Below, in pieces: positions 5,215 to 39,193 of a stretch of 64,000 nucleotides of DNA (the first letter of the stretch is position 1; each line of letters opens with the position of its first letter). Location: positions 3,232,001 through 3,296,000 of the forward strand of contig OY760183.1 of the NCBI GenBank assembly GCA_963663275.1, read 5' to 3'. The DNA comes from Chloroflexota bacterium. Lineage in GTDB: Bacteria; Chloroflexota; UBA11872; VXOZ01. Made by a program: the position numbers and the translations under genes. The notes below the pieces were generated by a model, which was given only the letters and a program-made list of their open reading frames with translations, was not told where the DNA came from and searched no databases.

Positions 5215-5600
5215 TGGGGCTGAGAGGTATGTGTAGGTGTCATTCCGAGCGGAGCGCAGCGCAGCGAGGAATCCAGGGCAGTGACCCGCAAATCCAGCAT
5301 CCTTAGATTCCTCTCTCCGCTGCGCTCCGTTCGGAATGACACTCGCATGCCGTTGTCGGCCCAGGAGAGGGAACCGGATGGCATCCTCTCTTGCCCCATC
5401 TCCCTGGGGAGAGGGCCGGGGTGAGGGGGATTCGCGTAGCGCGAAAATCTCCCCTCAAGGGCGCCACACAAGAGTGGAGAGTTACGAGCAGGATGCTCCT
5501 ACACGGTCTGCCATGCGGCATAGGGGCACGACTTGCCAGCAGGCGCAGAGGCACGACTTGCCATCAGGCGTAGGGGCACGACATGTCGTGCCCCTACGCC
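5215..5600. repeat. Mosaic REP cluster: family B doublet (GTCATTCCGAGCG...CGGAATGAC), family C hairpin, family D palindrome (GTAGGGGCACGACATGTCGTGCCCCTAC)
   Basis: The same motifs recur at 12235, 16061, 26387, 32717, 37323 and 61984. Confidence 0.85.
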
Positions 5601-10708: not shown

Positions 10709-11090
10709 CCCCTCTCCCTGAGGGAGAGGGTTAGGGTGAGGGGGATATTGCGGCGAATCATACGAAGGCCCTGCGAAGTGGGATGGAACCGGCGAAGACT
10801 CACCCTCACCCCGGCCCTCTCCCTTTGGAGACCCTTGCATAACCCCTTCCCCATCGAGGGGGAAGGTTGGGATGGGGGGCGAAATGGCTTGACTTCATGC
10901 AAGCTTTAGTTGTAAAAGCACTCTGGATTCCGGTTTTCACCGGAATGACGGAGTTATGCAAAGGGCTCCTGAGGGAGATGGTTAGGGTGAGGGGGATATT
11001 GCGGCGAATCATACGAAGGCCCTGCGAAGTGGGATGGAACCGGCGAAGACTCACCCTCACCCCGGCCCTCTCCCAAAGGGAGAGGGGGAC
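10709..11090. repeat. Direct ~95-bp duplication built on family C hairpins, bracketing a GGAGACC-ended MITE
   Basis: 10729-10823 recurs at 10980-11074 (GGTTAGGGTGAGGGGGATATTGCGGCGAATCATACG...CCCTCTCCC). Confidence 0.9.
10827..10969. mobile_element. Non-autonomous element (MITE) with TIRs GGAGACCCTTGCATAAC / GTTATGCAAAGGGCTCC
   Basis: Near-perfect 17-bp TIRs; sits at the centre of a family C hairpin; homologous along its length to 37253-37550. The ends resemble IS5-family (IS1106-type GAGACCTTTGCA) termini, which is an inference. Confidence 0.7.
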
Positions 11091-26367: not shown

Positions 26368-26514
26368 CTGACAAGGGTATGTAAATGTCATTCCGAGCGG
26401 AGCGAGGAATCTAGAATTGACGATATTGCAGGGTAGCGCCTTAGATTCCTCTCTCCGCTGCGCTCCGTTCGGAATGACACGTGAAGTCGATTCTATAGTA
26501 CATACCCCTGTCAG
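26368..26514. mobile_element. 147-bp CTGACA-ended MITE with a 12-bp target-site duplication
   Basis: TIRs CTGACAAGGGTATGTA / TACATACCCCTGTCAG. Flanked by CTCTCCTGGGGG at 26356-26367 and 26515-26526. Inserted in a family C hairpin. Confidence 0.85.
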
Positions 26515-36208: not shown

Positions 36209-36233
36209 TTAATTGACCCATTTAGTTAAGATA
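36209..36233 (+). promoter_or_regulatory. Candidate Rrf2-family (IscR/CymR-like) operator
   Basis: TTAATTGACCCATTTAGTTAAGATA resembles the IscR type-1 consensus ATASYYGACTRWWWYAGTCRRSTAT. It is an AT-rich patch upstream of a sulfurtransferase gene. Confidence 0.45.
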
Positions 36234-36293
36234 GAAGTAACTCGTTTCCTCGCTCGAACAATTGCACACAGCCCCTATAGGAGGCACAGGACA

Positions 36294-37253
36294 ATGCAGA
36301 GAGGATTTTCCCGACGGATGTTCCTGCACTTCACTGCTCTCGCAGCCGGAGGCGCGCTGCTCGCCGCCGCCTGCGGAGAAGGCGCCGCGCCGGCCGGAGA
36401 TGCGCCGGATGGCCCGCAAGGCTACGCCAATCCCGGCCTGTTGGTGGAGACCGACTGGCTGGCGGAGAATCTCGGCAATGCGGACTTGCGCATCATCGAC
36501 GTGCGTTCGGCGGAAGACTACGCCGCCGGCCACGTGCCCAACGCCATCAACATCCACTCGCGCACGTTCGTCGATCCCGATAACGAAATCAGCGGCATGC
36601 TCATCCCGCCGGAAGCGTTCGCCGCGCTGGTGGGCGAGCACGGCATCAGCGACGAATCCGAGGTCGTGGTCTACGGCAGCGGCAACATCCTCTGGGCCAC
36701 CCGCGTCTTCTGGGCGCTGGAACTCTACGGCAACCGCAACGCCAAGGTGCTGAACGGCGGCTTTGCCAAGTGGGCCGAGGAAGAGCGCGAGTTGTCCACG
36801 GAGGTACCCTCGTTCCCCGCGGCCACGTTCACGATTAACTTCGATCCGCTCCTGATTGGCACGTTCGAAGAGGTGCAGGCCGCCATCGAGAGCGGCGACG
36901 AGAACGCCGTGGTGCTGGATAACCGCTCCGCGGGCGAGTACTCCGGGCGTGACGTGCGCTCCGACCGGGGCGGCCACATTCCGGGCGCCATCAACCAGGA
37001 TTGGGTCGTCTACCTCAACGGCGGCGACGCGCGCACCTTCAAGTCGGCCGCGGAACTGACGGCGCTCTTCGATGACGCCGGCATCACCGAAGACACGGTG
37101 GTCTACGCCCACTGCCAGACCGCGGTGCGCTCCTCGGTGGCCTATTTCGTGGCGCGGCTGCTGGGCTACAACAACGTGCAGAACTACGACGGCGCCTGGG
37201 CCGAGTGGGGCAATAACGCGGACGTGCCGATCAACACCGGCTCCAACCCGTAG
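36294..37253 (+). CDS. Tandem-domain rhodanese / sulfurtransferase, Tat lipoprotein
   Basis: FSRRMFL twin-arginine motif, AAAC lipobox, GHVPNA, GGHIPGA, catalytic loop CQTAVRS, YDGAWAEW. Confidence 0.92.
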   Translation: MQRGFSRRMFLHFTALAAGGALLAAACGEGAAPAGDAPDGPQGYANPGLLVETDWLAENLGNADLRIIDVRSAEDYAAGHVPNAINIHSRTFVDPDNEISGMLIPPEAFAALVGEHGISDESEVVVYGSGNILWATRVFWALELYGNRNAKVLNGGFAKWAEEERELSTEVPSFPAATFTINFDPLLIGTFEEVQAAIESGDENAVVLDNRSAGEYSGRDVRSDRGGHIPGAINQDWVVYLNGGDARTFKSAAELTALFDDAGITEDTVVYAHCQTAVRSSVAYFVARLLGYNNVQNYDGAWAEWGNNADVPINTGSNP

Positions 37254-37550
37254 GAGACCCTTGCACTACCCCTTCCCCATTGAGGGCTGACAGGGGTAGG
37301 CATTCTACATCCGACTTCACGTGTCATTCCGAGCGGAGCGCAGCGGAGAGAGGAATCTAAGGCTTTCGTGGCAAAAACGTCGGTTCTAGATTCCTCGCTC
37401 CGCTCGGAATGACACGTGCCTACCCCTGTCAGCCCATTGAGGGGGAAGGTTGGGATGGGGGTGAAATAGCTTGACATCAAGCTGTGTTTAGTGAGACATC
37501 GCCCTGGATTCCGGCTTCCGCCGGAATGACGGAGATTTGCAGAGGTTTCC
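37253..37550. mobile_element. GGAGACC-ended MITE interrupted by a nested CTGACA MITE
   Basis: Ends GGAGACCCTTGCA / TGCAGAGGTTTCC. Colinear with 10827-10969 once the nested insert and one TSD copy are removed. Confidence 0.75.
37287..37432. mobile_element. 146-bp CTGACA-ended MITE with an 11-bp target-site duplication
   Basis: Perfect 16-bp TIRs CTGACAGGGGTAGGCA / TGCCTACCCCTGTCAG. CCCATTGAGGG is duplicated at 37276-37286 and 37433-37443. Confidence 0.9.
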
Positions 37551-37584
37551 GTAGGGTTGTCGCCGCGCTAAACCCGTCTATCCT

Positions 37585-37621
37585 GAAAGGACGCGCGCTT
37601 GGTCGCGCGTCCTTTCTCTTT
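37585..37621 (+). terminator. Intrinsic terminator
   Basis: GAAAGGACGCGCG-CTTGGT-CGCGCGTCCTTTC followed by TCTTT. Confidence 0.75.
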
Positions 37622-37930
37622 GCCGCTAATCGCGGCAGCGCCAAGATGGCTCCCAGCTTTCGCGGGATTGTACGTGTCAGCGAATTCATTGACAGAATCC
37701 GCTCCTCAAAGGGAGCCTTGAATGTCAATGTCATTCCGAGCGGAGCGAGGAATCTAGGGTCGGCGCCCCAACCTGCATGGTTGGCTCGCCGTCTCTCTTT
37801 CTCTTTGGCTGAGCAACTACCCCCAGTAGAAAGCACACTTGCGCTCCCCCTGTCGTTTGTCCACAATGAGAGCAACGACTCGCTTGTCATTGCCCGTTCA
37901 ATTCCGCAGCCACTGGAGGAGAAACAACCC

Positions 37931-39193
37931 ATGCAGACCGTAGAGCAAGAGCAACTTGCCATCGACGGCGGCCCCAGGACCGTAGACTACAAGTTCCCCA
38001 CCAACAGCGACATCAGCGGCCGCATGTTCGGCGACGAAGAGATCGCCGAACTGACCGACGTGATCCGCTCCGGCAACCTGAACGTGCTCGGCGGGCCCAA
38101 GGTGCAGCAGTTTGAGGAAGAGTGGAAGCGGACCTTTGGCGTCAAGCACGCCGTTACCAGCACCTCCGGCACCGCCGCGCTGCACGTGGGCGTGCTGGCC
38201 GTGGGGCCCAACCCCGGCGACGAGATCATCGTCGCGCCGATTACGGACATCGGCAGCCTGATTGCCATCCTCTACCAGCTTGCCGTGCCGGTCTTCGCCG
38301 ACGTAGACCCGCTCTCGGGCATCATTACCGCCGAGACCATCGAGCCGTGCATCACCGAGCGCACCGTGGCCATCATGGTGGTGCACCTCCAAGGCAACGC
38401 GGCGGTGATGGACCCCATCATGGAACTGGCCCGCAAGCACAACCTGCTGGTAATCGAGGACTGTTCCCAGGCGCACATGGCGGCCTACAACGGCCGCTAC
38501 GCCGGCACTATCGGCGACATCGGCTGCTACTCCTTCCAGCAGAGCAAGCACATGACCACCGGCGACGGCGGCATGACCGTGACGAACAACGACTACCTGG
38601 GCGAGCGCATCATGCTGGCCCACAACAAAGGCCGGGGCCGCAGCGGGCGCGAGAACCAGCCGCCCTTCCTGGCGCCCAACTACCGCATGACGGAACTGCA
38701 AGGCGCGGTCGGCCTGGCCCAGTTGCGCAAACTGCCGACCATCACGGGCCTGCGCACCAAGTGGGGCAACATGCTGAGCGACCTGGTTGAGGACGTGCCC
38801 GGCGTCATCCCGCCGCGCGCGCCCACGCCGGAGAGCACCCACGTCTTCTGGAATTGGTGCCCGCTGGCCAAGCTGGAAGAACTGTCCGTCGGGCTGGACG
38901 ACTTGTCCAAGGCCTTTGCGCACGAGGGCGTGGGCTTCGGCGCGGGCTACACGCGCACGCCGATCTACGAGTACGACGTGCTGAAGAACCGCCGCTTCTT
39001 TGGCGAATCGGCCTTCCCGCTGCTGGATCCCGCCAACGGACGCGACGTGCGCTACTACACCGGCATGTGCCCCAACGCGGAAAGCATCCTGAAACGCATG
39101 CTCGTGCGGCATATCAACGAGAAGTGCACCGAGGAAATGATCCACGACATGGCCCGCGCCATCCGCAAGGTGTTCACCCACTACGCCCAGTAA
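37931..39193 (+). CDS. DegT/DnrJ/EryC1/StrS family PLP-dependent aminotransferase
   Basis: Motifs SGTAALH, VIEDCSQAH, PLP lysine in SFQQSKHMTTGDGG, NYRMTELQGA. SD GGAGGAG. Confidence 0.93.
   Translation: MQTVEQEQLAIDGGPRTVDYKFPTNSDISGRMFGDEEIAELTDVIRSGNLNVLGGPKVQQFEEEWKRTFGVKHAVTSTSGTAALHVGVLAVGPNPGDEIIVAPITDIGSLIAILYQLAVPVFADVDPLSGIITAETIEPCITERTVAIMVVHLQGNAAVMDPIMELARKHNLLVIEDCSQAHMAAYNGRYAGTIGDIGCYSFQQSKHMTTGDGGMTVTNNDYLGERIMLAHNKGRGRSGRENQPPFLAPNYRMTELQGAVGLAQLRKLPTITGLRTKWGNMLSDLVEDVPGVIPPRAPTPESTHVFWNWCPLAKLEELSVGLDDLSKAFAHEGVGFGAGYTRTPIYEYDVLKNRRFFGESAFPLLDPANGRDVRYYTGMCPNAESILKRMLVRHINEKCTEEMIHDMARAIRKVFTHYAQ

Follow-up and report, generated by a model that had tools for sequence, protein, structure and literature searches.

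Two unrelated MITEs, probably nested by successive insertion, downstream of a rhodanese gene in a Chloroflexota genome

Introduction

How a 298-bp block of inverted repeats came to lie between the stop codon of a rhodanese-like sulfurtransferase gene and its terminator-like hairpin is the question raised by a 64,000-nucleotide stretch of Chloroflexota DNA, referred to here as the window (C1:3232001-3296000; C1 is the only contig of this genome of 3,531,182 bases and 64% G+C). The original prediction, made from the letters of the window, was that the block is mobile DNA of a "Russian doll" kind, i.e., a MITE (miniature inverted-repeat transposable element) nested in another MITE. Nested transposon insertions of this type are classic in plant genomes, and such nesting has reportedly been described from cyanobacteria. 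Our analysis indicates that two unrelated MITEs, an outer one with ends of the IS5 family and an inner one with IS4-type ends, very probably inserted successively after the rhodanese stop codon.

Results

The arrangement at the locus is as follows.

36213-37253, + strand: two-domain, rhodanese-like sulfurtransferase gene (open reading frame; Pfam PF00581, 118.8 bits, two stretches)
37250-37252 (left copy) and 37551-37553 (right copy), no strand assigned: target duplication GTA of the outer MITE (sequence reading)
37253-37550, + strand: outer MITE, 298 bp in all, of which 141 bp belong to it and 157 bp to the inner insertion, with ends shared with the genome's IS5-family element
37276-37286 (left) and 37433-37443 (right), no strand assigned: 11-bp target duplication of the inner MITE, CCCATTGAGGG (two copies, 100% identity)
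37287-37432, no strand assigned: inner MITE, 146 bp, non-coding, with terminal inverted repeats (TIRs) at 37287-37302 and 37417-37432
37586-37615, + strand: terminator-like hairpin of the rhodanese gene (sequence; a similar hairpin is present in 14 same-genus orthologous loci)

The inner element has perfect 16-bp TIRs, the left being CTGACAGGGGTAGGCA and the right its exact reverse complement, and an exact 11-bp flanking duplication, all as originally described; the TIR arms extend to 19 nt when three palindromic flank bases are included. Its interior is a single long hairpin, termed "family B" (arms 37318-37340/37396-37418 and 37342-37359/37387-37404), and arms CCCCTTCCCC and GGGGGAAGG flank the two copies of the duplication on either side. 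The claim that this element is nested inside a second one also held. The outer element, whose left end (37253-37272) starts with GGAGACCCTTGCA and whose right end (37531-37550) finishes with TGCAGAGGTTTCC, is bordered by a 3-bp duplication; the inner element interrupts its hairpin 1 (arms ~37269-37278 and 37441-37449), and its hairpin 2 occupies 37506-37530. The 298-bp insert and the 3-bp duplication together have shifted the terminator hairpin 301 bp away from the rhodanese stop codon. That stop codon, TAG (37251-37253), is completed by the first G of the outer MITE, and since the reconstructed empty site likewise reads TAG, the stop codon and reading frame were unaltered by the insertion. 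A search of positions 36800-38000 against Rfam at a permissive threshold returned sub-threshold, chance-level matches only and no family at the locus (sX14, 27.3 vs. 80 bits; MIR8622, 24.7 vs. 197 bits; Betaproteobacteria-1, 20.9 vs. 49.4 bits).

Orthologous loci were consistent with insertion into an otherwise empty site. All 16 of the other genomes in the genus share the rhodanese gene, and the 14 loci whose junctions were examined were all empty, with the stop codon followed by ~25-40 nt and the terminator-like hairpin, and with neither element; in the remaining two genomes, whose junction sequence lies outside these 14, the match also stops at the element boundary. The closest genome, G011, reads TCCGTAGGCGTTGCC in place of the 298-bp insert and its 3-bp duplication. 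Empty alleles were also found among public contigs: a 2240-nt contig of run X7 joins 37254 to 37557 (five differences in 555 flanking letters) and an 894-nt contig of run X1 joins 37253 to 37557 (six differences in 554). Since the few letters found at these joints are like those of G011, and unlike what a precise excision would leave, both alleles are ancestral empty sites. A 2449-nt contig of run X6 runs without differences from the gene across the outer end and covers the inner element's first 11 bases; this run may be the source sample and is not independent evidence. A joint in X6 that connects 37281 to 37439 (157 letters skipped) was considered as an empty allele and rejected, its shorter side being only 25 letters, and is most likely a paralogous empty copy. 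Parts of the stretch without contig cover are uninformative on allele state.

Genome-wide, the exact 16-mer TIR of the inner element occurred 43 times in forward and 49 times in reverse orientation, and inner ends with up to three mismatches numbered 130 (left) and 129 (right). Since a control pattern, the TIR read backwards, gave 0 and 0 matches at up to one mismatch, this abundance is not due to chance. Pairing left and right ends at a spacing of 90-400 bp yielded 97 inner elements, 64 of which were 144-147 bp long. An exact 10-12-bp flanking repeat was present at 42 of the 97 (nine of 10 bp, 27 of 11 bp and six of 12 bp), with 11 bp as the modal length. When 11-bp flanks were compared with up to two mismatches allowed, the duplication was retained in 58 of the 97 copies vs. 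111 of 2000 shuffled partners (5.5%). The 43 best-preserved sites gave a symmetric target logo, T(C/T)CCCC-N5-GGGGGA. The 49 copies that could be oriented had a median identity of 95.2% to the consensus (at least 97% in 21 of them), and the consensus folds as a near-perfect long hairpin (-85.3 kcal/mol). In keeping with a MITE, the inner element is short, lacks coding capacity, shows TIRs and duplications in many copies, and has empty sites. No full-length element with these ends was found in the genome, as TIR pairs 600-3500 bp apart proved to be neighboring MITEs only. The window holds one further complete copy:

26368-26514 (C1 3258368-3258514), no strand assigned: inner MITE, 147 bp, lying in a CCCTCTCC/GGAGAGGG hairpin and flanked by a 12-bp duplication, CTCTCCTGGGGG

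Two elements that are 89% alike, at C1 1139107-1139343 (237 bp) and 2214416-2214632 (217 bp), have perfect inner-type ends around a different sub-terminal sequence and a hairpin variant; they may represent a second MITE lineage served by the same transposase as the inner family.

The outer element likewise belongs to a large family. A blastn search with an empty outer copy gave 159 hits, 67 of them scored full length; ~9 of the 67 proved to be filled copies in which the left end had been wrongly extended into inner-element sequence. Pairing of 17-nt outer ends gave 102 elements, 142 bp in most copies, with size classes of ~142 bp (51 elements), ~299 bp with the inner element aboard (22), ~1.2 kb (six) and other lengths (23). 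An exact 3-bp repeat flanked 53 of the 102 end-pairs vs. 3.7% in shuffled-partner controls, so that the genome-wide survey of duplications, which had been suggested as a check, was positive for both families. The duplication was preceded by CCC and followed by GGG in 37 of the 102, and 41 lie inside CCCTCTCC/GGAGAGGG hairpins. Their partner is a single 1241-bp element (C1:1441993-1443233), lying within a hairpin of the CCCTCTCC/GGAGAGGG type and bearing a TGAA repeat, which shares ~20 nt with the outer MITE at each end, including an AACCC/AACTCC left/right asymmetry. It encodes, at positions 1474-2442 of locus L001, a 322-aa transposase of the IS5 family (NF033581, 297.6 bits vs. a cut-off of 140; PF01609 and DUF772), in agreement with the earlier IS5-type reading of the outer ends. 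Since only the ends are shared with this element, the outer element is a MITE dependent on this borrowed IS5-family transposase.

The window also contains an uninterrupted copy of the outer element, within a hairpin of a third repeat family:

10827-10969, + strand: paralogous outer MITE with hairpin 1 intact and a single CCCATCGAGGG, an empty site for the inner element and one of the 59 empty copies described below (sequence comparison)
10722-10823, + strand: "family C" repeat, ~102 bp, with imperfect ~25-nt ends (GGGAGAGGG-NNN-GGGTGAGGG); second copy at ~10973-11074

The terminal arms of the two family C copies form the hairpin, noted originally, that holds this empty outer copy, which lies between the arms CCCTCTCCC and GGGAGA(T/G)GG; around the copy itself, no flanking duplication is intact (TTT vs. 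TGA). A blastn search with family C returned 66 hits, 40 of them near-full-length, with both strands not de-duplicated.

The 97 inner copies were found in CCCTCTCC/GGAGAGGG hairpins (46 copies), in hairpin 1 of outer MITEs (32), beside the GGGGGCTTGTCCCCCGC repetitive extragenic palindromic (REP) repeat (9) and elsewhere (10). The inner element had been called a REP-targeting MITE, but only these nine of 97 copies stand beside the repeat that is linked to the genome's RAYT gene. Insertion at a hairpin center, also claimed originally, was true at the locus, but in CCCTCTCC/GGAGAGGG hairpins the 11-bp duplication sits off-center, toward one arm. A CCC-N5-GGG-like site of 11 bp therefore accounts for the target better than the center of a hairpin does; a preference for sequence fits more closely, although the enzyme may recognize either sequence or structure. 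Uninterrupted sites are plentiful, with 292 of CCCTCTCC-N2-8-GGAGAGGG and 55 of CCTTCCCC-N3-7-GGGGAAGG genome-wide.

Nesting of inner in outer elements is recurrent. Hairpin 1 was scored in the 89 outer copies whose right part is nearly complete, and proved filled in 30 and empty in 59; for 22 of the 30 filled copies the nearest outer relative was empty. Relative orientation within the 32 nested copies was the same in eight, opposite in 11 and unresolved in 13, and the sequence of the inner duplication tracked each local hairpin variant. The best pair among 26 composites in which both outer ends were recognizable was 91.3% identical, and the best match of the window's composite was 90.6%. The ~30 nestings in this genome are therefore independent, recurrent insertions. 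Outer copies had a median pairwise identity of 80%, and their greater divergence, compared with the inner family's 95.2% to consensus, fits an order of outer first and inner second. Recurrence appears to follow from the preference of these mobile elements for each other's GC-rich hairpins.

The cargo of the inner element had been described as a family B REP doublet. A family B hairpin it is, and a stand-alone repeat, but not the repeat that flanks the RAYT gene. Its core, GTCATTCCGAGCGGAGCG, occurs 411 times in the genome, 188 of them within the 97 paired inner elements; the remainder form 126 clusters, ~51 of which have no end-like sequence within 80 bp. Since many cores lie outside paired elements and lack ends, the cargo is a free-standing repeat family capped by IS4-type ends. 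As a stand-alone hairpin, with GTCATTCCGAGCGGAGCG...GAATC arms around a loop that varies, it is abundant and has variants such as GTCATTCTGAGGAGCG; examples in the window lie at 37730-37747, 62041 and 5238-5341. The only RAYT of the genome (C1 382948-383439; L006 1399-1890; NF047646, 95.9 bits vs. a cut-off of 80) has in its flanks inverted copies of a separate repeat, GTAGCGCGGGGGCTYGTCCCCCGCC. Two to three REP copies lie upstream of it and four inverted copies downstream in a ~124-bp tandem array, so that RAYT and its flanking REPs look like a classic REP-RAYT unit, which adjoins one copy of the resident IS4-family element described below. A REP or REPIN would flank RAYT in inverted copies without target duplication, whereas duplications accompany both the inner and the outer element.

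Other families also use these hairpins, and the original proposal of at least three tiers landing in each other's hairpins was borne out, with more than three in evidence. An IS30-family element (~1034 bp; 336-aa open reading frame, ORF; NF033563, 237.5 bits vs. 80) is found at one and the same point of hairpin 2 in eight outer copies, none of them in the window. Two of these composites, at C1:40127 and C1:2919017, show 100% identity across 1179 bp but lie between unrelated flanks, as if the MITE carrying IS30 had moved as a single unit. A resident IS4-family element with CAATG... ends (367-aa transposase; NF033592, 156.9 bits vs. a cut-off of 115) interrupts the RAYT-linked REP in its GGGGCTYGTCCCC core, apparently duplicating 13 bp.

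C1 40127-41305, 660176-661330, 1342890-1344063 and 1666766-1667944: outer copies carrying the IS30-family element
C1 2919017-2920195, 2470110-2471263, 2814733-2815905 and 3186907-3188085 (L109): further outer copies carrying it
C1 381613-382844, 1063147-1064358, 1097960-1099226 and 3018000-3019231 (L002-L005): the four copies of the resident IS4-family element

The transposases of both MITEs had been placed outside the window. The IS5-family partner is indeed elsewhere in the genome, but that of the inner element was not found anywhere in it, and the inner family is stranded in its genome. Counts of inner ends (up to one mismatch) across 41 related genomes showed 140 hits in this genome, 30 in G011 and four in G014 of the same genus, one to two in each of three other same-genus genomes, and four to 11 in each of the six sampled genomes of g5, a genus in another family of the class. 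A scan for inner ends at 30 PF01609 loci in five relatives gave one true match, locus L038 of the g5 genome G038. There, a 1313-bp, IS4-like element (L038 974-2286) matches the first 14 inner-end bases at 12 (left) and 13 (right) positions, is flanked by the 11-bp repeat CTAATGGTCCC and has one ORF, of 420 aa, at L038 1006-2268. The protein scored 36.1 bits on PF01609 (cut-off 23), carries the YREK signature YGLRAWIEQGFKLTK at residue 292, and has a candidate D/D/E spacing of 62 and 101 by manual motif reading. The element is IS4-like by these comparisons, and its near-identical ends and 11-bp duplication support the IS4-type reading that had been given to the inner ends; by ends, duplication length and nearest autonomous relative, the inner family is classed as IS4-like as well.

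A further full-length copy of the L038 element, in G095, has an 11-bp repeat, and a second copy in G038 has a CTGAC end. Proteins of the L038 type were found in 10 of 98 genomes of the class, i.e., in eight of nine g5 genomes, in the one g20 genome and in one of the 16 other genomes of the window's genus; this last match (G014) is a fragment, one end of which looks like a variant of the MITE end. Metagenomic relatives are plentiful (6879 of 8000 scored candidates at E<=1e-10), with generic names only. Solo TIR matches in g5 (L007-L011) were rejected as transposase loci, their neighbors being SelA-like, DNA methylase and SecD genes. In L007 and L008 (G038), from base 501, the same ends (CTGACAGGGGTAGGTA) cap a different cargo, and g5 cargo includes a GGATTCCGGCTTGCGCCGGAATGA hairpin that closely resembles hairpin 2 of the outer MITE in this genome. 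In the L038 element (1000-1013), CGGAATGACAC occurs ~28 nt inside the left end; this 11-mer is identical to the end of a family B hairpin arm, but is opposite in orientation to that of the MITE.

Discussion

These results suggest the following course of events at the locus. The outer MITE would have integrated into a CCC-GTA-GGG site immediately behind the stop codon of the rhodanese gene, with duplication of GTA, and the inner MITE, essentially IS4-type ends capping a pre-existing family B hairpin, would then have entered the tip of outer hairpin 1 by way of an 11-bp staggered cut. An IS4-family DDE transposase would bind the 16-bp ends and excise the element, presumably by cut-and-paste chemistry; joining across one helical turn of the target, followed by gap repair, would yield the 11-bp duplication. 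The preferred target would be the symmetric T(C/T)CCCC-N5-GGGGGA, and nesting would recur because such sites are supplied in this genome mainly by the hairpin tips of other repeats. The empty sites, duplications and target pattern are observed; we infer the identity of the inner MITE's transposase, its chemistry, and its recognition of the target by sequence or by hairpin structure.

An alternative that we regard as improbable is that the 298-bp block is a composite of single origin, spread as one unit by means of its outer ends, in which case the nesting would be one historical event. Composite movement is apparently possible, judging from the identical outer-plus-IS30 elements at two loci, and the public contigs at the locus are either filled with both elements or empty, an outer-only allele not being seen among them. 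However, an inner element that had been carried along in this way would not be expected in both orientations, with duplications that vary to match each local hairpin, or in outer copies whose nearest relatives are mostly empty. The low identity of even the best composite pair and the location of 65 of the 97 inner copies outside outer MITEs speak against it too. Spread of outer plus inner as a unit found no support in the composite comparison and, as a general route, is largely refuted.

Still less room is left for the view that the inner element is a REP/REPIN palindrome spread by RAYT, a Y1 transposase, or by replication slippage, with the flanking repeats as by-products of the palindrome. 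It draws on the facts that the inner element is almost wholly hairpin, that one RAYT is encoded, and that ~51 of the 126 outside family B clusters have no end-like sequence nearby. This RAYT is flanked by a different inverted repeat, however, and a fixed 11-bp duplication is seen in 58 of the 97 copies vs. 5.5% of controls; Y1 transposases are not known to generate target duplications. The same ends and duplication length also occur on transposase-bearing IS copies, and two further copies in this genome have the same ends around other cargo. Equally remote is mobilization of the inner MITE by the resident IS4-family element, so that the family would not be stranded after all. Its four copies encode the sole IS4-family transposase above its NCBIfam cut-off in the genome, and it likewise targets GC-rich palindromes. 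Its ends (CAATGTTGTCGCATTAA...) are unrelated to CTGACAGGGGTAGGCA, though, its duplication is of 13 bp (GGGGCTCGTCCCC) and not 11 bp, and its transposase scores only 27.2 bits on IS4_2, the best model for the inner element's relative.

Successive insertion of two unrelated MITEs remains our preferred explanation, against which several observations have to be set. A translated search of the window's own genome with the 420-aa L038 protein gave 0 hits at E<=10, and the five PF01609 matches in the genome belong to other elements, none having inner ends. The L038 ends differ from the MITE ends at 3-4 of 16 positions; the best model for its protein, NCBIfam IS4_2 (NF033591, E 1.4e-30), was matched at 106.6 bits, below the cut-off of 152, and a comparison with PDB sequences gave 0 matches at E<=1. 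This IS4-like relative is therefore a putative source of mobilization for the inner MITE. Three or more mismatches were present in the 11-bp flank comparison of 39 of the 97 inner copies, and among public contigs none covers the entire nested locus. Finally, the outer copy at the locus is diverged (best composite match 90.6%), yet the site is polymorphic among strains with ~99% identical flanks; no donor copy was found among the composites.

Considering known systems, the IS4 family has been defined with a YREK signature and ranges of D/D/E spacing (De Palmenaer et al., 2008; PMC2266710). The L038 relative agrees with it in its single-ORF DDE transposase, Y-2-R-3-E-6-K motif, duplication of about one helical turn (11 bp), D/D/E spacing (62/101) within range, and symmetric target (PMC2266710). 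In the 2008 table, CT ends in the subgroups IS10, IS50 and ISPepr1 go with 7-9-bp repeats, and repeats of 10-13 bp are paired with other ends (PMC2266710); unlike these subgroups, the present elements combine 5'-CT ends with an 11-bp duplication, the latter shared with IS231, ISH8 and IS4, whose ends differ. This combination may mark an undescribed IS4 subgroup, set apart by the 2008 table only. Among MITEs, Nezha and Chunjie (PMC3184786) are comparable in being short, non-coding, multi-copy and intergenic, with TIRs, direct repeats, and filled and empty sites between relatives. Unlike them, the two families described here are nested ~30 times, the inner one has no parent in its own genome, and the MITEs share just ~16-20-nt ends with IS elements and no internal sequence (PMC3184786). 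REPs are known as IS targets (Tobes and Pareja, 2006, cited in PMC3184786; ISPpu9, PMC12288879), and the use of GC-rich extragenic palindromes as landing sites, as well as the splitting of a RAYT-linked REP by the resident IS4-family element, is in line with those reports. In contrast to REP-targeting IS (PMC3184786, PMC12288879), the inner element is a MITE, its main targets are the hairpins of other mobile repeats, and its duplication is of 11 bp.

The locus shares with nested transposons in general a younger element inside an older one and an order of events that can be read from divergence. It differs in what seems to drive the nesting in this compact 3.5-Mb genome, namely target specificity for short palindromes and not mere density of repeats. 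For prokaryotes, nested elements are mentioned in connection with IS and MITE detection (PMC3852290), and a limited word search of the open-access literature found no bacterial MITE-in-MITE paper beyond that one pipeline remark, which is weak evidence of novelty; the word "nested" had 0 occurrences in a review of prokaryotic MITEs (PMC10969869) and in a large survey (PMC11602168). Each component is already known, i.e., MITEs with a parent IS, REP targets, the IS4 and IS5 families, and nesting, while the hierarchy found here is unusually dense and legible. It provides a compact bacterial genome in which the landing of mobile elements in each other's hairpins can be counted cleanly, with five families involved (IS4-like MITE, IS5 MITE, IS30, IS4 and RAYT/REP) and the order of events readable from sequence. 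It also offers a natural set of target sites for an IS4-like transposase as yet uncharacterized, and it exemplifies a stranded MITE family. When such genomes are annotated, composite repeats that are in reality nested elements are to be expected; our understanding of transposition mechanisms is unchanged by the finding.

A broader proposal, which we put forward tentatively and consider doubtful, is that an undescribed IS4-family subgroup exists, characterized by CT ends, 11-bp duplications and CCC-N5-GGG targets, its ends occurring in at least two families of the class with differing cargo, and having reached ~100 copies in this genus, some of them matching the consensus exactly, without an intact transposase in any sampled genome of the genus. 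If so, the inner transposase would be supplied transiently from outside, by a plasmid, a phage or a neighboring lineage, and the repeats would serve as layered, harmless landing pads that let several transposon families persist without hitting genes. A second IS4-like element, present at L051, L058 and L064 in G088 and in ten copies in G038, has a 387-aa frame that is 38-40% identical to the 420-aa protein, and ends reading CTTAATACACGACAC. The G088 copies examined have 11-bp repeats, e.g., GCTGCGGCGGG within a CCCCCC...GGGGGG hairpin, and hairpin targeting together with 11-bp repeats may thus be a trait of the whole IS4-like clade.

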